Assembly: GCA_045641845.1 (NCBI GenBank)
Contig: JAZUHS010000240.1
Span: forward strand, 8,136 to 72,135
Reading direction: 5' to 3'
Length of the DNA: 64,000 bases
DNA from: Bulleidia sp.
GTDB taxonomy: Bacteria > Bacillota_I > Bacilli_A > Erysipelotrichales > Erysipelotrichaceae
The notes under the pieces are model-generated. The model saw only the letters and a program-made list of their open reading frames with translations. It was not told where the DNA came from and made no database searches. Numbering within the stretch: position 1 is the first letter of the stretch; the number at the start of each line of letters is the position of its first letter. The position numbers were made by a program, and so were the translations under genes. Shown piece after piece: positions 4,837 through 61,312 of this stretch.

Positions 4837-6786
4837 TCAGTTATTATCGAGATGAGAATTCATCCAGTTGAGTGTTTCTGTGAAGGAACGTTCACGATGT
4901 GAAGGCTTACCGATGTTGTTCAGACCATGGGAATCGCCTTCGAATGTGACAACGCGTGTTTCGCAGCCATGATCCATCAGAGATGTAACCATCTGCAGGC
5001 CATCGGAGAGGTGGCAGCGGAAGTCATCGAGAGGCTGAATGAACAGTGTCGGTGTGACGCAGTTGTTTGCGTATGCCAGCGGGGAGCACTTCCAGTATGT
5101 TTCAATTTCATCCCAGGGAGAGCCACCCATGAGTTCCTTAACGTAGAGACGGGAGATGTCAGATACACCGTACATGGATACCCAGTTAACAACTGAGCAC
5201 TGGGAGCTTGCAGCGTGGAAACGGTTTGTGTGACCGATGATCCAGTTTGTCATGAAGCCGCCATAGGATACACCTGTGACGCCCATGCGTTCTGTATCGA
5301 TTGAAGGATACTTTTCGAGAACTGCGTCTGTGAAGGCCATGATGTCTTCATAGTCGGGGCCACCTGTCATTCTGCGGATTTCAGCGAAGTCGTTGCCTCT
5401 GCCATCGGAACCCTGAGGGTTGCAATAGAAGACAAAGTAACCCTGAGATGCCCACAGCTGAATGACATGCTGGTAGATAGGATAGAATACACCCTTAGGA
5501 CCGCCGTGGATATAGAGGATTGCCGGATACTTCTTAGCGGGGTCGTAATCGAAAGGCTTGGAGATGTAGCCGTCGATTTCCCATCCTCTGCGTGTGATTG
5601 TCATAGGTTCAGCTTCTGCGACATAGTAATCCTTGAGGAGATCATCATTGAAGTTACTGATCTGCACTGCCTTGCCGTCTACAACTGCATATACTTCATT
5701 GAGGTGCAGTTCATGGAGACCAGTGAATACGAGTGTACCGTTCTGTTCGTCAAAGCTTGTGATGGATCCGTTCCAATCGAATACAGGCTTGATACCTTCA
5801 TCGTTGAAGGAGAATACTGTGTTGCTGTATCTCTGCATGCTGTTAAACAGGAATGCTTCGGGTGTGTTGACGATTGCGCCGAAGGAGTAGTCACCTTCGC
5901 AGATGAGTGTCAGTTCACCTGTTTCTGTATTTACTTCAAAGAAGTCAGGGTGTGTGCTTCCTCCGTACTTGGATGCGTCTGCAGCCATGAATACGAGCTT
6001 ACCGTTATATGCAGCAACTGCCTGTCTGCTGTTGTCATACTTAGTGTTCTTTACGACTGTGCAGATTTCCTTTGTTTTTGTGTTGAAGCACATTACATCC
6101 TTATACAGGGGATTTGTCTGGCTGTATTCATAGCCGGAGTAATATACGTTATCACCGATCACTGCTGTGCTCTGTACTTCGAATAAAGCGGAGCTTGCAG
6201 GTGTGATTGTGTCTGTTTCTTCTTCATAGAGGAAGAGACGGTTTCTCATCTTGTTCTGGAAACCGGGCATGCCGTTGAGCCAGAAGGGTGTTTCGTCAAT
6301 GACATTGAAGTCCTTGTTCTTCTTGCGGTCATCTGCGACAGCTTTCTTTTCTTCTGCTGTCATCTTGTAGTAGTCAGCGACTGTTGCATCACAGAATGCT
6401 GTAATGAGGTATACACCTTCACCGAGCTTCTGGACATTGCGAGCCTTTACCGGAACCTTGAATGCCTTCTGTGCTTCACCGCCGTTAAGGGATACACGAT
6501 AGAATACTGTGAAGTCTTCTTCAGCAGCCTTCTTCTTGTCTGTTTCATCGCGCAGAGCAGGGAAGAGCAGTGTGTTGTTATCATCAAAAATAAATGAGTT
6601 TTCTTTGCCAAGGCCTGTGAAGGGTTTGAATTCTTCGCCATCCTTTACCCAGATTTTGTAGTTATAGCCGTCTTCGTCATTATTTACGGTCTGTACAGTG
6701 ACAGCGATCTTTGTTCCATCAGGAGATACTTTTACTGTCTGAGGGATACGATACTGTCTGAATAATTCTAAAGTTACCTTTTCCAT
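4837..6786 (-). CDS. S9 family peptidase (acylaminoacyl/dipeptidyl peptidase-like)
   Basis: Beta-propeller N-terminus, IHGGP, catalytic GVSYGG, D-x-R and H (GDSHGL) of the alpha/beta hydrolase triad. Confidence 0.92.
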   Translation of the reverse strand: MEKVTLELFRQYRIPQTVKVSPDGTKIAVTVQTVNNDEDGYNYKIWVKDGEEFKPFTGLGKENSFIFDDNNTLLFPALRDETDKKKAAEEDFTVFYRVSLNGGEAQKAFKVPVKARNVQKLGEGVYLITAFCDATVADYYKMTAEEKKAVADDRKKNKDFNVIDETPFWLNGMPGFQNKMRNRLFLYEEETDTITPASSALFEVQSTAVIGDNVYYSGYEYSQTNPLYKDVMCFNTKTKEICTVVKNTKYDNSRQAVAAYNGKLVFMAADASKYGGSTHPDFFEVNTETGELTLICEGDYSFGAIVNTPEAFLFNSMQRYSNTVFSFNDEGIKPVFDWNGSITSFDEQNGTLVFTGLHELHLNEVYAVVDGKAVQISNFNDDLLKDYYVAEAEPMTITRRGWEIDGYISKPFDYDPAKKYPAILYIHGGPKGVFYPIYQHVIQLWASQGYFVFYCNPQGSDGRGNDFAEIRRMTGGPDYEDIMAFTDAVLEKYPSIDTERMGVTGVSYGGFMTNWIIGHTNRFHAASSQCSVVNWVSMYGVSDISRLYVKELMGGSPWDEIETYWKCSPLAYANNCVTPTLFIQPLDDFRCHLSDGLQMVTSLMDHGCETRVVTFEGDSHGLNNIGKPSHRERSFTETLNWMNSHLDNN

Positions 6787-6962
6787 TTTCAGAATCCTCC
6801 GTTGTTCCTATTGTACACAAAGGGATAATTGATCGCTTTCTGATTGCTCATGAATAAGGGTTATTTCCGTGCTGTTTTACGCATTTTTCTGTAAATAGAC
6901 ATGGTTCTTTACATTCAAAAAGACAGATCCGTCAGGACCTGCCTTGTGAGAAAGAGATTGGA

Positions 6963-9122
6963 TTACTTCATCAGAGAAGCAACTTCGTTCATGTTTGTGA
7001 TTTCTTCGTTGACTGCTGTCTGATAGAAAGCAAGCTGAGCGTCGTGTGCACCCTTGTAGATTGCGATTTCTTCTGTGAAGTCAGGATTTTCTTCTTCTGC
7101 CTTAGCAAGCATGCCAAGTGTTGCCTGATATGTATCTGCCAGGTAGAATCCCTTATCTGTACCCCACCACTTATTTCCTTCTGTGGATGCATCAACATGC
7201 TTTTCGATGTTCTTGACTGCTTCCGGAGAGAAGATGTAGTAGTTGTATTCAACAATACCGTTGATTGCATATGCTGTATCAAGAGCTGTTTCAATGTCGC
7301 CTTCTTCAAGAGCTGCTGTAACAGCATCAATCAGATAGAGGTTTTCGAGATAGCCCATATGACGTGTTACGATATCACTGGAGAAGATAATGGAGATAAA
7401 GTTGTCCTGGATTGCCTTGAAGACAGAGAGAATCTCCTTATTCAGTCCTGTACCTTCAGCACGGATTGCATCCTTTTCTTCAGCAGATGCGGAAGCATAG
7501 CGTGCGTTGATATCTGCAGCCTTTGCATTCAGTGCTTCAGCAGCTGCCATCAGGTTTTCAGCAGCGGCATTCCAGGCATCAACATCTACACCGTCATTCA
7601 TAGCTGCATATTCAGCATCGAATGTTTCCATCAGGTCATAGACTGTTGCTGTCAGGTCGAGCATCATTGCGGGGTTCTGGTCAATTGCAATTGCGATGGA
7701 GCCGAAGACACCGATGTTAGCCTTCATAACCTTTTCGCAGTATGTATCAGCGTTATCGCTTTCTGTGTGATAGTGAAGCTGTGTCCAGCCATATTCATCT
7801 TCGGAACGGTTGCCTGCGCATGTATCTGTTACGTTAATGAAGTAAGGCACACCATGATGTCTGTAGGAGACGCCGTCTTCCATTGTTGTAGTGTCGAATG
7901 TTGCATCTGTTACGCCGTTAGCATATTCAGAAGCTGCGTAATCAAGAAGACCTTCTTCAACAAGTGTACCTACGAGTGTTGCGTATTCTGGTACGCAGCT
8001 GACTGCAAATGTGTCACCGCCGTCATCGAATGCGCATAATTCATAGTTAAACAGAGCAAGTGTCTTTTCCGCCCATTCAGGATGAGCTGTGTCGATCATT
8101 TCCCAGGCACCGCGTGTCCAGTCGAATTCTGTACCTGTGGAGCCCCATTCTTCTGCGCCGTGTGCTACAACCAGGACATCGTTTTCAGGTGTGTAGCCGC
8201 TGTCGATCATTGCCTTAGCCATGGACATTGCTGTTGCGATGGCAGAGCAGTCATCCTGGAAGCCTGTGAAGTACATGTCATAGTGACCTGCGAAGATCAT
8301 CTGCTGAGCAGAGCTCTTGCCCTTGATCTTACCTACGACGTTATAGGATGTGCCTCCATTAGGAACCATGACACTGTCAACTTTGAGTGTGCACATGTTA
8401 TGGCCAGCTTCCAGTTCAGCTGCGAGTGCTTCGTATTCATTTGCTGTGATGATGACTGTAGGCATTAAATCTTCGCAGCAGATATCCTGAATCTGATGGT
8501 CATCACTGGAGAAACGGCCATAGCCATCCATGTCATATGTGACGAGTGCTGCAGCACCGTGCTCATTTGCTTCATAGATGTATCCGTCGATCCAGGATTC
8601 GTTCCACTGGTCTACGCCGACCAGAACGATCTTGCCTTCAACGTCTACATCTTCGTAGTCATATACGAAACCTGTACCAAGGTCTACGATTTCAGCTGTA
8701 ATACCATTTTCATCTGTACCGTTGCACATATAGGATACAGGGGTCAGTGTAAGGTCAGAGTCAGCGATTGTGAGTTCTGCGCCATTGAACTGCCACTTAT
8801 CTACTGTGACAGGAACCTTTTCTACCTCAACCAGGCCAATCTTCTTCATTTCTTCGGCAATGAAGTCAGCGGCCTTGTGTTCTGCATCAGAACCGGATGT
8901 GCGGAAACCAAGTTCATTTTCATGCATGCTCGGATCTGTGGAGAGTGTGTAGGTAAGGTTGTATGCATATTCCATATCGATTGCGTCGACATATGCTTTA
9001 ACCATTTCCTGAATGCCTGTTTCTTCAGTTTCAGGTGTTGCGGAAACAGGTGTGGAAGAAGCGGGTTTTGTGCAGCCTGCAGCGAGCAGCACAGCGAGTG
9101 TAAGAGTTGTGATCTTCTTCAT
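6963..9122 (-). CDS. Lipoprotein M28-family metallopeptidase with PA domain
   Basis: Lipobox LAAG/C; PA domain (DVEGKIVLV); Zn ligands GHYD, QDDCS, AEEWG, ELC, HYHTESD. Confidence 0.85.
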   Translation of the reverse strand: MKKITTLTLAVLLAAGCTKPASSTPVSATPETEETGIQEMVKAYVDAIDMEYAYNLTYTLSTDPSMHENELGFRTSGSDAEHKAADFIAEEMKKIGLVEVEKVPVTVDKWQFNGAELTIADSDLTLTPVSYMCNGTDENGITAEIVDLGTGFVYDYEDVDVEGKIVLVGVDQWNESWIDGYIYEANEHGAAALVTYDMDGYGRFSSDDHQIQDICCEDLMPTVIITANEYEALAAELEAGHNMCTLKVDSVMVPNGGTSYNVVGKIKGKSSAQQMIFAGHYDMYFTGFQDDCSAIATAMSMAKAMIDSGYTPENDVLVVAHGAEEWGSTGTEFDWTRGAWEMIDTAHPEWAEKTLALFNYELCAFDDGGDTFAVSCVPEYATLVGTLVEEGLLDYAASEYANGVTDATFDTTTMEDGVSYRHHGVPYFINVTDTCAGNRSEDEYGWTQLHYHTESDNADTYCEKVMKANIGVFGSIAIAIDQNPAMMLDLTATVYDLMETFDAEYAAMNDGVDVDAWNAAAENLMAAAEALNAKAADINARYASASAEEKDAIRAEGTGLNKEILSVFKAIQDNFISIIFSSDIVTRHMGYLENLYLIDAVTAALEEGDIETALDTAYAINGIVEYNYYIFSPEAVKNIEKHVDASTEGNKWWGTDKGFYLADTYQATLGMLAKAEEENPDFTEEIAIYKGAHDAQLAFYQTAVNEEITNMNEVASLMK

Positions 9123-9142
9123 GTTATTTTCCCCTTTCGTTT

Positions 9143-9170
9143 AAAAAGACGGGTACGCTGTATACCCGTC
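9143..9170 (-). terminator. Attenuator-type terminator immediately upstream of the M28 peptidase RBS
   Basis: Minus strand GACGGGTA-tacagcg-TACCCGTC-TTTTT, about 20 nt before the ATG. Confidence 0.8.
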
Positions 9171-9407
9171 CTGAATCATCCTATACAAGTTCATTCTGCT
9201 ACAGAAATCGCTTCTTATTGACCATTTCATAAAGGTATGATGCGTACTTTACAAAACTGAGCTTTTAACTCAGATCAATAAGGCAACAAGTGCCTTCCGT
9301 ATTCCCTAAATACGGTTCTTATCTCTTCGATAAGTTTCCGGCATTTGACCCGGCCGTCCGTGTAGCCTCGGCTTGATAAAGCGGTCATTTCTGTACTCTT
9401 TGTACGG
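9171..9407 (-). ncRNA. Orphan structured 5' leader, candidate riboswitch/attenuator of unknown class
   Basis: Lies between a consensus promoter and a terminator; 9-bp closing helix (9387-9395 with 9200-9208) enclosing five abutting hairpins; no T-box or other riboswitch consensus recognised. Confidence 0.6.
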
Positions 9408-9412
9408 CTATG

Positions 9413-9441
9413 ATATTACGTGATGTATATGGGATGTGCAA
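9413..9441 (-). promoter_or_regulatory. Sigma-A type promoter driving the leader and M28 peptidase
   Basis: TTGCAC-N17-TAATAT on the minus strand. Confidence 0.7.
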
Positions 9442-9485
9442 CATAATTCAGCAGTATTTAGAATTGCTTAAGCCATTTATGAACA

Positions 9486-9523
9486 TTAAAAAAACTGACA
9501 GATTGCTCTGCCAGTTTTCAGTT
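9486..9523 (-). terminator. gap terminator
   Basis: AACTGGCAGA-gcaa-TCTGTCAGTT followed by a T tract on the minus strand. Confidence 0.8.
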
Positions 9524-9539
9524 CGATGATTTAAATCAA

Positions 9540-10577
9540 TTACTGAACGTTGGAGAAGTACTTGATTGTACGAACCATCTGGGATGTGTAGGAGTTCTCG
9601 TTATCGTACCAAGATACAACCTGTACCTGATATGTTTCGTCATCAATCTTAGCTACCATTGTCTGTGTAGCATCGAACAGGGAACCGTATGTCATACCGA
9701 TGATATCGGAAGATACGATCTGATCTTCGTTGTAACCATAGGATTCGTTAGCAGCAGCCTTCATAGCAGCGTTTACGCCTTCCTTAGTTACATCTGTACC
9801 CTTAACTACAGCTACGAGCAGTGTTGTGGAACCTGTAGGAACCGGAACACGCTGAGCGGAGCCGATGGGCTTGCCATTCAGTTCAGGAATTACGAGACCG
9901 ATAGCCTTAGCAGCACCTGTGGAGTTAGGAACGATGTTCTGAGCACCAGCTCTAGCACGGCGCAGATCGCCCTTTCTCTGAGGACCATCGAGGATCATCT
10001 GGTCGCCTGTGTATGCATGAACAGTTGTCATGATACCGGACTGGATGGGAGCATAGTCATTCAGAGCCTTAGCCATAGGAGCGAGGCAGTTTGTTGTGCA
10101 GGATGCAGCAGAGATTACTGTATCTTCAGCAGTCAGGATTTCATGGTTAGTGTTGTAAACGATTGTAGGCAGATCGTTTCCTGCAGGAGCAGAGATAACT
10201 ACCTTACGAGCACCAGCCTTGATGTGAGCTTCAGCCTTAGCCTTGGATGTGTAGAAGCCTGTGCATTCGAGAACTACGTCTACCTTCAGTTCACCCCAAG
10301 GGCATTCGGAAGCGTCCTTGATAGCATAGATAACGATCTTCTTGCCATCAACAACGATGTAGTTGTCTTCGCCTTCACCTTCGTGGAAATCAACTGTGTG
10401 ACCCTTACGAACATAGTTACCCTGAGCTGTATCATACTTCAGCAGGTGAGCCAGCATCTTTGCACTTGTCAGGTCGTTGATTGCTACTACTTCATAGCCT
10501 TCAGCGTCAAACATCTGACGGAAAGCCAGACGGCCGATACGGCCGAAACCATTAATTGCAACTCTTACATCTGTCAT
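9540..10577 (-). CDS. gap: Type I glyceraldehyde-3-phosphate dehydrogenase
   Basis: [21 protein letters not shown] catalytic motif, SWYDNE; start moved to [10 protein letters not shown] by AAGGAGG RBS. Confidence 0.98.
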
Positions 10578-10688: not shown

Positions 10689-10860
10689 GTGACATTTTCA
10701 CTATCATTTACTTATGCGATAAAGATTCCTGCTTCACCGTTTCCTCCTGAAAATCAGATGAAGAAACTCTGATCTTGCGACCCCTGCTGTACACGCAGGA
10801 CAGGCGTATTTTGTATAGCGGTTTCCCGTTCTCCCCAGGTACCGCTCTGTTTTCGTCAGC
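10689..10860 (-). ncRNA. Putative omegaRNA (reRNA) scaffold / right end of the tnpB element
   Basis: Directly 3' of tnpB; contains ACGCCTGT and GAAGCAGGAATC, which resemble IS605/IS1341 right ends as I recall them, and ends in TGTCAC; the terminal hairpin looks degenerate. Confidence 0.45.
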
Positions 10861-12013
10861 CGTTCAGAATACGGAGCCCTTCACGTTCGATGTTGACCGC
10901 CGCATTTTCGTCACGGTCGTGAATCACCCCGCATTGCGGGCAAACCCAGATTCTTGTTTCCAGATTTTTCAGCTTGTGATTTCGGTAACCGCAGGCACTG
11001 CAGAGCTGACTGCTTGGATAGTAGCGATTGATTTCCACGATCTGCTTACCATTCCATGCTGCCTTGTACTTCAGCATTCGTACCATCTCCTGCCAGGATG
11101 CATCCGAAATTGCTTTTGCTCTGTGATGTGTCTTCAGCATCTTTTCTATATCAAGGTCTTCGACACAGATAATGTCATAGTTTTTAATCATGCGGGTTGT
11201 CAGTTTCTGCAGATGATCTGTGCGCTGATTATGAACCCGGTTCTGCAGGCGAGCGACTTTGACCTTCTGCTTTTGATAGTTTCTGCTTTGTGATAATGGA
11301 CGGTCTGCTTCTTTGGCAAGCCGCGACTTGCGGCTGAGTTTACGCTGCTGGCGATGAAGCTTTCGTTCTGTCTTTGCATAATCATATGGAACTGAGATAT
11401 GCTCTCCTTTTGATGTAACTGCAAGGTCTTTCAGGCCAAGGTCGACCCCGATGCTTTTTCCTGCCGGTTTCAAAGAAACATATTCTTCTCGGCAGAGTAC
11501 AGAAACATAGTATTCGTCTGCGGCGGTATGACGAAGAGAGACGGATACGATCGGTCCTTTGATATGATCTGAAACCACGCACTCGATCATCTGCAAGCCT
11601 GGTAGTGCTATATGTTTTTTCCCCAGAAGAATCGTATGATCAAGGTTACGGAATGTGCAGGTCTGGTCAGCACGTCGAATGCGAAACTTAGGGCACTTTG
11701 CTTTTCCGTTCTGATAGCGTTCAAAGGCAGTGCAGAGCTGATGTGCAGAATTGTACAGAACCGTTGGATCTGTCATCTGCAGCCATCGGGTTTCCGGAGT
11801 GCTGCGGAGTTTATCGATCATGGTGATGCACTGGCTGTATGTCAGGTTCCGCTTTGTTTCCTTTAAGGACTGATTCCATTTGTTAAGCAGATAGTTATAG
11901 ACATATCTGTTCTGACCAAAGATTTCGCTGATCTTCTGTTTCTGCGTATCTGTCGGATAGATGCGGTATTTATGAGCACGGTAAACTGTTCTGTTCATAC
12001 TATTTTTATTCAC
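10856..12013 (-). mobile_element. tnpB: IS200/IS605-family TnpB RNA-guided endonuclease (IS1341-like, no tnpA)
   Basis: HKYRIYPT N-terminus, RuvC-I GVDLGLK, RuvC-II VEDL, Zn finger CSACG/CPQCG, RuvC-III DRDENAA; all three acidic residues present. Confidence 0.93.
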
Positions 12014-12066: not shown

Positions 12067-12984
12067 TTATGCGAATTCGTTGAGATTCAGCGGTCGCTGA
12101 CTGATGGCAAATGCTTCTTCTACAGTTTCGATGCGGCGATTGAACAGTTTGGAGAAGAGATCTGCGTCGTTGAGACGAACCATTGTTGAAGGATATCTCA
12201 TGGACTTAGCTTCAGGGAATACTCTTGAGAGATCCTCTGCTTCACTGACAAGCAGGTGTACTGTTTTCTTTTCCTGTACACATGCATTGCACAGCTTGTT
12301 CAGGCAGGCTGCATCGAGATATACGATTTCTTCTGCGATCAGTTCTTCACCCATGGGGATCATGACTGCATAGCCTCTGATCTGGTCTTTGCCATTGTAA
12401 AAAGCGACGATCTTGCCGCCCTGTGCGTTTACTTCCTGCTTGTAGCGCACGAAGTATTCCAGGTCACGGGGATAGAAGCCGTTGAAGCGGCGGATGAATG
12501 CGGAGTATACCTTCAGAAGGTCAAGGGGTGCCGGGTCAAAGGAACAGCCGAAGTTTGTAGTGCGGTGTACGTCCTTGCGTTCGATTGTATATCTTCTGCG
12601 ATGATAGATCGTACGGAATCCCATCGGTTCATATAATTTAGGTTCTTCTGTCTGGATCAGTGTGAGAAGTTCTGTGTGTTCGCAGGCATCCAGAACAATT
12701 TTCATAAGTTCACGCATGTATCCTTTGCGCTGTTCTTCCGGAATGGTTGCAACACCCATGATCATGCTGGTCTGCAGGACTCTGCCATTGAACATCAGTG
12801 CGTGCGGGTTTCGAATAGCGGCAGAGATGGGTTTGTCTCCATCCATCATGACATAGCAGTTTTCGGGTTTATAGTGTGCCTTGAAATAGAAATCCGTATA
12901 ACGGGGATCATTCTGAGGGAAACATGTTTTCCATATTTCACGCAGTTCTCCTGTCATGGAGGGATCTGCTTTGATTACTTTCAT
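12067..12984 (-). CDS. GNAT-family (Eis-like) N-acetyltransferase
   Basis: GVATIPEEQRKGYM acetyl-CoA motif, LYEPMGF; start at MKVIK chosen by RBS. Confidence 0.85.
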   Translation of the reverse strand: MKVIKADPSMTGELREIWKTCFPQNDPRYTDFYFKAHYKPENCYVMMDGDKPISAAIRNPHALMFNGRVLQTSMIMGVATIPEEQRKGYMRELMKIVLDACEHTELLTLIQTEEPKLYEPMGFRTIYHRRRYTIERKDVHRTTNFGCSFDPAPLDLLKVYSAFIRRFNGFYPRDLEYFVRYKQEVNAQGGKIVAFYNGKDQIRGYAVMIPMGEELIAEEIVYLDAACLNKLCNACVQEKKTVHLLVSEAEDLSRVFPEAKSMRYPSTMVRLNDADLFSKLFNRRIETVEEAFAISQRPLNLNEFA

Positions 12985-12997
12985 GTGGTTCTCTTTT

Positions 12998-13192
12998 CTA
13001 CTGGTCTTTCTTTTCGGGATGATCTTTGTTTTCATCCTCAGCCCAGTCGGTTAGGTGTCGTGTTCTGAAGTATCCGAGAACTATCATTGCGGCCAGAATC
13101 CATGCGACGTACCATGCGTCTTTCAGAGCGATGGAGAACGGGATGATAAAAGCAAGGAGGATGCAGAGCAGAATGATGGATGTTTTAGTCAT
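12998..13192 (-). CDS. Small two-TM membrane protein
   Basis: AGGAGG RBS, overlaps the whiA stop, two hydrophobic helices. Confidence 0.7.
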   Translation of the reverse strand: MTKTSIILLCILLAFIIPFSIALKDAWYVAWILAAMIVLGYFRTRHLTDWAEDENKDHPEKKDQ

Positions 13193-29359: not shown

Positions 29360-29600
29360 GAGATAATAAAAAGACATCCTGCTGAAAGGACGTCTTGCAC
29401 GCGGTACCACCTTTGTCTTGTCTGCAGAATATGCAGACCTCTCAAACGTTGTAACGGACGTCTCCGGGTTATGTTAACGATTCGCATAACCGGCTCCGGG
29501 GCCATGTTCTTCCATCTTTCGAAACAGACTTTCACCAGCCGTCTGCTCTCTGCATTCTAATAACGGAATACTCTTCCCTTCTTTGCTTTTCAACGCATCT
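29360..29600 (-). promoter_or_regulatory. T-box riboswitch (Met)
   Basis: AGTA, AGAGAG and GGTG stem I elements, specifier GAAC-AUG (29502-29504), T-box AAGGTGGTACCGCG (about 29400-29413), terminator. Confidence 0.93.
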
Positions 29601-59519: not shown

Positions 59520-59529
59520 ATACAAAAAA

Positions 59530-59607
59530 GTGGCACACGCAATCAGAGGGTTGTATGGCTGCTACCTTCCGGTCCTGACCAGGTTCTATCCATGAATGCT
59601 GTGCCAC
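59530..59607 (-). ncRNA. ffs: Small (4.5S-type) SRP RNA
   Basis: Conserved domain IV UCAGGACCGGAAGGUAGCAGC enclosed by GUGGCAC/GUGCCAC stem; promoter TTGCAG-N17-TATAAT at 59612-59640. Confidence 0.93.
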
Positions 59608-59683
59608 GGATATTATATAGGAATACCCGTCCATCTGCAAGCACGCCTGTTCGCATGAAACATTTTGGCGGAAGTGGCGTGAT

Positions 59684-61074: not shown

Positions 61075-61305
61075 CAAAATAAAAACATCGAACCCATCAA
61101 AGGGACGATGTTATCGCGGTGCCACCCTTTTTGTAACGATTGTTTCACGTGAAACAATTGATACCTCTCGTTTATGCGAGTAACGGTCGCTCCCGTAAGT
61201 GATTAGCTTCTCTCCAGGATGGATTCTCTTTCTACGGTGACTGTTCTCATCAACCACAGTCTTTCTTGAACTACTTTCGAAAGATACTATTTCCTATCGA
61301 CGATT
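61075..61305 (-). promoter_or_regulatory. T-box riboswitch (Ser)
   Basis: AGTA and GGTTGATG stem I, specifier GAA-UCC (61221-61223), T-box AAGGGTGGCACCGCG (about 61115-61129), terminator. Confidence 0.93.
61141..61156. promoter_or_regulatory. parS site inside the serS T-box leader
   Basis: Perfect TGTTTCACGTGAAACA, extended to the 20-bp palindrome ATTGTTTCACGTGAAACAAT. Confidence 0.92.
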
Positions 61306-61312
61306 TCATCTA

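Follow-up and report, generated by a model that had tools for sequence, protein, structure and literature searches.

A 64,000-nt stretch of Bulleidia sp. DNA (GenBank assembly GCA_045641845.1, contig JAZUHS010000240.1, positions 8,136 to 72,135 of the forward strand; hereafter the window, in whose numbering all positions are given) contains on its minus strand a leader RNA of ~265 nt (9143–9408) that belongs to the known orphan ldcC/SpF59 family rather than to a new class. The leader lies within the 417-nt minus-strand intergenic region between a glyceraldehyde-3-phosphate dehydrogenase (GAPDH) gene (10643–9540) and an open reading frame (ORF) of 719 amino acids (9122–6963), which encodes a lipoprotein peptidase. 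Conserved sequence runs far past 54 nt in every relative, and the 54-nt Rfam model of the family covers no more than the 5′ part of a leader with two domains and roughly 220–400 nt. We regard it as very probable that the element is an attenuator of the ldcC family. On balance, it probably acts in cis on transcription as a leader of the polyamine regulon, with termination occurring when polyamines are sufficient.

Positions 9338–9387 (minus strand) match Rfam RF02440, ‘Streptococcus sRNA SpF59 (ldcC RNA)’, with 56.1 bits at a gathering score of 37.2 (E = 1.7e-9). The match spans model positions 1–54 of 54 without truncation and is the sole Rfam 15 match in the leader region; the same model matched 8/8 related loci tested. 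No Rfam family matched the 3′ domain described below in these eight loci or, at E ≤ 10, in the window, ruling out a second Rfam family for that part. The whole leader has a computed minimum free energy (MFE) of −81.6 kcal/mol (z = −3.9 vs shuffles, with 0/200 shuffles as good). Together with covariation in relatives, this value agrees with a preliminary description of this DNA, made from the sequence alone, which had recognized a structured, riboswitch-like 5′ leader controlling the downstream lipoprotein peptidase. That description had also found no resemblance to the T-box, lysine, S-adenosylmethionine (SAM), flavin mononucleotide (FMN) or cobalamin classes, and the Rfam scan returned none of them for the leader at E ≤ 10. 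Its further proposal, a new riboswitch class outside any known family, gives way to the 56.1-bit RF02440 match, the kind of strong Rfam hit that it had itself named as evidence against novelty. Of its readings, a riboswitch candidate or a protein-dependent attenuator may each describe the leader.

Relatives were collected by scanning species-representative genomes with an exact pattern of the core, yielding at least 120 loci, and with a metagenome scan for the core variant of the window, yielding at least 120 more (about 240 together). The genome loci listed are mostly from Clostridia, with others from Bacilli, Erysipelotrichaceae, one Negativicute and one Spirochaete metagenome-assembled genome (MAG). 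In the ~240 loci listed, the element is sense-oriented and directly upstream of a gene, and the distance from the terminator to the ribosome-binding site (RBS) is within about 20–60 nt. Two matches are probably due to chance: L025 (Dehalococcoidia), which has the core pattern without a match to our model of the 3′ domain, and L129, whose GC-rich flanks are unlike a leader. The metagenome contig L197 combines 5′ and 3′ leader parts from two different lineages; it is probably an assembly chimera with its joint in the invariant core and was left out of the alignments.

The ldcC core of the window (9338–9387, minus) consists of the core stem P1 (UGACC 9387–9383 with GGUCA 9350–9346), an inner hairpin GCUU-UAUC-AAGC (9382–9371), a mini-helix GGCU/GGCC within the bulge (9367–9364 with 9355–9352), the invariant loop ACGGAC (9361–9356) and the tail AAUGCCGG. 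The bulge and tail retain every highly conserved nucleotide (ACGGAC, GCCGGGUC and UGCCG, within 9361–9339), and the closing pair of the core covaries in 122 leaders (U-A in 64, G-C in 27, C-G in 12 and U.G in 6). The nucleotides of the possible pseudoknot in the original description are invariant and hence carry no covariation information; the bulge shows a mini-helix GGCY/RGCC instead. Relative to the majority core, the only change in the window is GGCU..GGCC for GGCC..AGCC, common to 10/120 genome loci listed. The underlying replacement of C.A by U.G (9364 and 9355 in the window) is isosteric and perfectly correlated among the same 120 loci. An altered ligand specificity of the GGCU..GGCC core was considered and rejected: the change is isosteric, and the same core precedes a complete speD-speA-speE-speB operon (L181) and potABCD-like genes. 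The changed core is therefore no change of regulon.

Two inserted hairpins sit between the core and hairpin d of the 3′ domain. The first, CUUAUC-GAAGA-GAUAAG (9318–9334, minus), carries a conserved GAAGA pentaloop and is specific to the sub-variant; 5/6 of its stem positions pair in ≥94% of 47 distinct sub-variant leaders, with two to three pair types each. The second, CCGUAUU-UAGGG-AAUACGG (9297–9315, minus), shows compensatory changes at two pairs (RNAalifold, 10 compact relatives), and other members of the sub-variant have a different hairpin in its place. An upstream ORF starting from the AUG inside AAAUGCC was also considered and rejected, given that this AUG is not conserved (AAUG vs ACUG types) and that the hairpins covary as RNA. 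The window presents a compact form of the GGCU..GGCC sub-variant, with the terminator only 9 nt past the closing helix. Its closest relatives among the matches listed are Erysipelotrichaceae MAGs, an ‘Eubacterium sp.’ bin and many human-gut contigs.

Downstream of the core, we built a covariance model of the 3′ domain (R1; 116 positions, 31 pairs). It matches the window at 9212–9301 (minus) with 59.6 bits (E = 5e-11), the only R1 match in the window, and is found directly 3′ of the core in 116/120 genome loci listed, where the 3′ domain occupies ~90–120 nt. The exceptions are L001 (cut at its end), L018 (divergent), L105 (Spirochaete) and the probable chance match L025. This domain comprises hairpin d (9296–9280; family type GGCAAC/GUUGCC), a long-range helix e/h formed by CUUAUUGAUC (9282–9273) and GGUCAAUAAG (9223–9214; family form CUUAUUGAU/GGUCAAUAAG), hairpin f CUGAG-UUAAAAG-CUCAG (9273–9257; family type UGAGUU-AAA-AGCUCA) and helix g (GUAAAG 9252–9247 with CUUUAU 9234–9229), all on the minus strand. 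Helix g is reduced in the window, with a 12-nt loop; in the family it reads AUAAGUU/AACUUGU and encloses one or two inner hairpins.

In an alignment of 97 R1 matches, 96.3% of cells pair, and 19/31 pairs change on both sides, compared with 5.9 ± 1.5 in shuffles and 8–14 in slid controls; collecting homologs and building a covariance model, a check suggested in the preliminary description, thus supported the fold. Hairpins d and f covary at every position, while the sequences of helices e/h and g hardly vary from class to class. A junction pair between the f/g and g/h junction strands covaries from A.C to G.U (mutual information 0.70; columns 109 and 203 of alignment A6). The family therefore holds two separate isosteric A.C-to-G.U wobble covariations, one in the ldcC bulge and one between these junction strands, and the fold might be pH-sensitive, since A.C wobble pairs need protonation. 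A search by mutual information for base-pair contacts between the two domains returned only lineage-type correlations.

The leader is closed by a bipartite helix. Its outer part, P0, pairs the 5′ strand CCGUACAA (9400–9407, minus), which includes the first of two GUAC boxes, with UUGUAUAGG at 9188–9180, as identified by RNAduplex of the 5′ and 3′ flanks (window pairing CCGUACAA/UUGUAU(A)GG). Its inner part, P1, pairs GUACAGAAAU (9387–9396, minus), which includes the second GUAC box, with AUUUCUGUAGC at 9208–9198. Bipartite helices of the P0/P1 type, differing in sequence, are present in all compact relatives (P1 of the window being GUACAGAAAU/AUUUCUGUA): P0 reads UUGCGUAC/GUAUGCAG in L128 and UAGUACU/AGUGCUU in L048, and the length of P1 covaries, with AAU/AUU in L048 vs AAAU/AUUU in the window. 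In the main types, the closing helix consists of GAGUC/GACUC plus AGCAGAUAAUU/AAUUAUUUGCU. When the 25–32 nt 5′ of the core were paired with the 40–55 nt 3′ of helix h across the family, cognate flanks reached a mean of −16.7 kcal/mol vs −11.9 for non-cognate flanks (p = 7e-27).

These cognate-specific duplexes uphold the closing helix UACAGAAAU/AUUUCUGUA (9395–9387 with 9208–9200) of the preliminary description, which P0 extends outward. The inward extension by UGACC/GGUCA that it had proposed is not borne out: the base preceding GACC changes in concert with the core GGGUCN while the 3′ GGUCAA stays A, and GGUCAAUAAG on the 3′ side pairs with CUUAUUGAUC instead. Among its five hairpins, those at 9334–9318, 9315–9297, 9296–9280 and 9273–9257 stand, each with compensatory changes. 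The remaining one (9353–9338, CCGG/CCGG) is made of bases of the ldcC core (3′ strand of the core stem P1, bulge and tail), most relatives allowing only 3 bp there, and the hairpin described as holding a T-loop-like GGGUCAAAUGCC is the invariant heart of this core. As a separate observation, every compact relative retains the two self-complementary GUAC boxes (9405–9402 and 9396–9393 in the window) at its extreme 5′ end; by pairing with one another, the boxes could make a small hairpin there that competes with P0/P1. The terminator of the window also holds GUAUAC and CGUAC.

The intrinsic terminator (9143–9174, minus) comprises a stem-loop at 9170–9148 and a U-tract at 9147–9143, and its bases 9174–9161 double as the 3′ strand of the antiterminator. 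The hairpin GACGGGUA-UACAGCG-UACCCGUC with U5 (9170–9143) forms in both the MFE and centroid folds, at −12.2 kcal/mol, in agreement with the terminator previously proposed just before the RBS. The switching sequence CAUACCUUUAUGAA (9239–9226, minus) can form either the 3′ strand of helix g or an antiterminator with UCAGGACGGGUAUA in the 5′ half of the terminator (9174–9161), at −7.9 kcal/mol. An OFF-type terminator/antiterminator platform, as the preliminary description had envisaged, is plausible, albeit with other strands: the pairing UUGUAUA:UAUACAG that it had assigned to the antiterminator adds only −2.8 kcal/mol and lacks family support.

Evidence for this switch comes from the family. 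When 18-nt windows along 105 leaders were scanned against cognate terminator halves, the 3′ strand of helix g plus the bases just before it was the sole position with cognate-specific complementarity to the terminator 5′ half (−9.4 vs −7.3 kcal/mol, p = 1.4e-10; −10.2 vs −7.9 kcal/mol, p = 3e-7). No other position in these 105 leaders was specific, and there was no signal for the terminator 3′ half. In 83 species-level leaders, cognate pairs averaged −12.5 kcal/mol, compared with −10.4 ± 0.25 kcal/mol after permutation (z = −8.2) and −11.2 ± 0.22 kcal/mol after permutation within subtypes (z = −5.8); the observed value was reached in 0/5000 permutations in both tests. With the helix g 3′ strand blocked, the terminator was predicted at a probability of 0.76 instead of 0.66 (p = 2.5e-9). 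A pairing of the 3′ closing strand with the terminator was rejected, as cognate and non-cognate energies were alike (−11.7 vs −11.3 kcal/mol, p = 0.23) and blocking this strand left the terminator probability unchanged. By geometry, the antiterminator crosses e/h and P0/P1 and is therefore mutually exclusive with the closed fold. Taken together, a terminator/antiterminator logic appears likely.

Four leaders of the carboxyspermidine-dehydrogenase type (L016, L034, L046 and L092, from Bacillaceae/Paenibacillaceae) have a further 100–250 nt between GACUCU and the final terminator. This extra region contains a conserved GAUAUAUUUGAAUAU box, matched by a AUAUUGAUGAUUAUAUC box before the terminator, and in some of the four an internal terminator-like hairpin, features of the sequence that suggest a more complex or double platform.

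Genes downstream of the relatives point to polyamines. Among the matches listed, GGACC-type leaders have an Orn/Lys/Arg decarboxylase downstream in 29/29 cases, and the other main types precede AdoMet decarboxylase, saccharopine-dehydrogenase-like (carboxy(nor)spermidine dehydrogenase-like) or PotA-type ABC ATPase genes. The GGCU..GGCC core precedes PA+M28 lipoproteins of 700–730 residues in many taxa, as well as potABCD-like operons, an Amidohydro_3 lipoprotein, a C39-like lipoprotein and one speD-speA-speE-speB-CASDH operon. The tabulation of downstream genes, likewise suggested beforehand, yielded polyamine synthesis and uptake genes beside hydrolases. Every associated gene serves polyamine synthesis or import or, in the case of the hydrolases, could provide precursors.

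We propose the following model for the leader. The RNA folds in two parts, the ldcC core with its two sub-variant hairpins and then a 3′ three-way-junction domain formed by d, e/h, f and g, with the bipartite helix P0/P1 closing the fold by joining the extreme 5′ end to the bases just 5′ of the terminator. A stable closed fold would keep the 3′ strand of helix g inside, so that the terminator would form and RNA polymerase would halt at 9147–9143. If the fold is not stabilized, 9239–9226 would pair with 9174–9161, permitting read-through into the peptidase gene. A signal of polyamine status is presumed to stabilize the fold, in the simplest case through direct binding of spermidine or a polyamine related to it. 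The analysis shows family membership, architecture, covariation, the terminator and the complementarity of the antiterminator; we infer the OFF direction (termination at polyamine sufficiency), what the signal is and that a ligand binds directly. With a rare, unrelated RNA (the spermidine riboswitch) as precedent, a direct polyamine ligand is a serious possibility that we stop short of calling probable.

Several points weigh against this model. The family-consistent fold has −61.6 kcal/mol and is not the computed MFE (−81.6 kcal/mol). The antiterminator of the window is weak (−7.9 vs −12.2 kcal/mol for the terminator), and the terminator is predicted at 0.89 at equilibrium whether or not the switching strand is free; given this dominance, control in the window would have to be kinetic or assisted. 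The regulated gene encodes a peptidase and no polyamine enzyme, its link to polyamines being by association only. No RNA-seq runs covering the window were found, and contig-level RNA and metagenome runs for the relative L145 were uninformative. A literature search for a ligand, a mechanism or a longer model of the ldcC motif found none. Finally, e/h and g are conserved beyond pairing needs, a pattern also compatible with a protein or other macromolecule recognizing them.

This last point leads to the most serious competitor, which we nevertheless consider rather improbable: the same RNA, terminator and antiterminator could be read by a trans-acting RNA-binding protein or an RNA that reports polyamine status and stabilizes either the closed fold or the antiterminator. 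The near-invariance of e/h, g and the junction strands across many Bacillota families and a Spirochaete would suit such a partner, as would the two conserved GUAC boxes at the extreme 5′ end and the lack of any ligand for the motif in the searchable literature since its description in 2017. The thermodynamic dominance of the terminator also recalls T-box leaders, which need a partner to antiterminate, but the leader has no match to the T-box model. Moreover, no candidate protein is known or encoded beside the leaders, which precede unrelated operons in very different taxa, and the two A.C-to-G.U covariations together with a GNRA-like pentaloop suit a compact tertiary fold typical of ligand-binding RNAs.

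A reversed direction of control is unlikely. In such an ON switch, termination would be the default, and a starvation signal (arginine, agmatine, decarboxylated SAM or another consequence of low polyamines) would stabilize the antiterminator. The prediction of the terminator in essentially all equilibrium states accords with this, and an aminopeptidase related to Arg/Lys-preferring enzymes could be induced when precursor is needed. However, the antiterminator cannot coexist with helices g, e/h and P0/P1, which make up the most conserved, covarying portion of the RNA. Termination therefore belongs to the conserved fold, and a ligand that binds this fold should promote it.

It is very improbable that the ~265-nt terminated leader is mainly a stand-alone, trans-acting small RNA (sRNA) whose position before a peptidase gene is incidental. 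Rfam does type RF02440 as ‘Gene; sRNA’ (Streptococcus sRNA SpF59), and a strong terminator would yield a short transcript in abundance; yet the ~240 loci listed lie in sense orientation directly before genes of coherent function, with an RBS past the terminator, and the terminator covaries with an internal strand, as attenuation expects. Functionless chance hairpins in an AT-rich intergenic region, for which the weak promoter match might speak, are already refuted by the Rfam (E = 1.7e-9) and R1 (E = 5e-11) matches, covariation in several helices and the fold z of −3.9, and are negligibly probable.

Beyond the cis-acting polyamine-regulon leader that we favor, we tentatively entertain a broader conjecture. 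In a widespread riboswitch of two domains that senses a polyamine such as spermidine directly, the ldcC motif may form the 5′ portion. The 54-nt core alone would then not suffice for binding, the ligand pocket or the switch would need the 3′ three-way-junction domain and closing helices, and the regulon would extend past biosynthesis and uptake to secreted or lipid-anchored hydrolases, which would provide precursors (Arg, Lys) or liberate polyamines from gut conjugates. The hydrolases of this extended regulon would be the PA+M28 aminopeptidase, the C39-like peptidase and the Amidohydro_3 protein. If true, the need for the 3′ domain and closing helices would explain why the ldcC class remains an orphan. 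There has long been a search for a widespread natural RNA sensor of polyamines, which are abundant and essential cations. The one class validated, a SAM-I variant, is rare, while the ldcC family is frequent among Bacillota of gut and soil, before the main polyamine synthesis and uptake genes. Knowing the full unit supplies boundaries for constructs as well as defined mutations and so brings the ligand question within direct experimental reach. For the window itself, an anonymous 719-residue lipoprotein peptidase is now assigned to the polyamine regulon, suggesting a role in arginine/lysine supply or in the release of extracellular polyamines.

The regulated gene (6963–9122, minus) encodes a lipoprotein whose signal peptide ends in the lipobox LAAGC, followed by PA and Peptidase_M28 domains (Pfam matches). 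The nearest solved structures are the PA-M28 aminopeptidases 2ek8, 3iib and 6hc6, of which 6hc6 carries the deposition title ‘Aminopeptidase YwaD | Aminopeptidase Y (Arg Lys Leu preference)’. An exact-protein look-up returned no record, and NCBIfam has no specific family for this protein. The RBS AAAGGGGA (9137–9130) and the ATG (9122–9120), together spanning 9120–9137 (minus), lie 3′ of the terminator and are not sequestered. Directly after the gene, we read from the sequence a terminator-like hairpin GGCAGGUCC-UGAC-GGAUCUGUC with U5 (6917–6943, minus), which the automatic terminator scan did not list. The next gene (4837–6786, minus) encodes an S9 (prolyl oligopeptidase family) peptidase and has its own upstream region; the two peptidase genes are adjacent, and the leader precedes only the M28 gene. 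With the hairpin and U5 at 6943–6917 and the S9 gene set apart, the regulated unit is therefore taken to be the M28 gene alone (monocistronic).

At the other end, a putative sigma-A promoter (9413–9441, minus) consists of the −35 element TTGCAC (9441–9436), a 17-nt spacer and the −10 element TAATAT (9418–9413), placing the predicted transcript start near 9408–9405. Its hexamers are as given in the preliminary description, with a weak match to the consensus (3/6 at −35 and 4/6 at −10, counted by eye from the sequence), and a promoter scan of the region called none at 9413–9441. The same −35/17/−10 arrangement lies 7–8 nt 5′ of the first GUAC box in four divergent relatives (L048, L058, L073 and L107), and this position relative to the box, common to the window and these relatives, is what supports the assignment. 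The GAPDH gene upstream has its own terminator (9519–9490, minus).

In many human-gut contigs (L122, L123, L126, L127, L131, L133, L139 and similar), the orthologous M28 leader is interrupted inside the 3′ domain. The insertion (e.g., L123:2436–2879) lies after UUGUAAACGA and before AUCAAUAAG and encodes an IS200-like Y1 transposase; it should uncouple the M28 gene from its leader. Contigs of the same lineage (L141, L162 and L171) carry the leader intact. In the window, an IS605-family TnpB/OrfB gene (10856–12013, minus; HTH_OrfB_IS605, OrfB_IS605 and Cas12f1-like TNB domains) is found a short distance upstream of the GAPDH gene, and a GNAT acetyltransferase gene (Acetyltransf_9) is located at 12067–13035 (minus). 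Elsewhere in the window, the Rfam scan detected T-boxes at 29383–29592 and 61098–61309 (both minus; 139.7 and 112.3 bits, respectively) and a small signal recognition particle (SRP) RNA at 59524–59610 (minus; 58 bits).

Among known systems, the closest is the ldcC motif itself. Its original description gives a bulged hairpin, possibly with an invariant pseudoknot, that recurs widely in Firmicutes before genes for arginine, ornithine or SAM decarboxylases, potA and a C39A peptidase, and proposes a link to polyamine homeostasis (Weinberg et al, 2017; PMC5737381). The window shares with this motif the hairpin-with-bulge, the invariant nucleotides and the position in the 5′ untranslated region, and among relatives the kind of regulon (polyamine decarboxylases, PotA, a C39-like peptidase) agrees as well. 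In contrast, the published model, as in Rfam 15, covers 54 nt and lacks the 3′ domain, closing helix and terminator/antiterminator, and the window represents a sub-variant with the GGCU...GGCC core, two inserted hairpins and a reduced helix g. Its downstream gene, rather than a decarboxylase, potA or C39 peptidase gene, encodes a PA+M28 lipoprotein, a class absent from the 2017 list.

The spermidine riboswitch, a SAM-I variant with 13 representatives, turns expression OFF by termination upstream of ldcC, speE and speB (Salvail et al, 2023; PMC10853860). It resembles the ldcC leader in being a cis-acting leader before polyamine genes with an intrinsic terminator and end-product OFF logic, the latter inferred for the ldcC leader. 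The two folds are unrelated, however, and the leader has no SAM-I or SAM clan match at E ≤ 10; the spermidine riboswitch is rare with a proven ligand, whereas the ldcC family is widespread. T-boxes are likewise large, multi-helix Bacillota leaders with a dominant terminator and an antiterminator strand drawn from the sensing domain. A scan for T-box (RF00230) nevertheless gave no match in 9050–9560 at E ≤ 10, while finding both true T-boxes elsewhere in the window; the leader shows no specifier loop or T-box bulge by eye, and the genes it precedes are not those of aminoacyl-tRNA synthetases or amino-acid biosynthesis. Lysine, FMN and cobalamin OFF riboswitches share with the ldcC leader a junction closed by a 5′/3′ helix, an aptamer strand that doubles as antiterminator and a terminator before the RBS. 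They match it in neither sequence nor structure, and the ldcC leader differs in keeping its switching strand within the internal helix g, from where the antiterminator crosses the closing helices.

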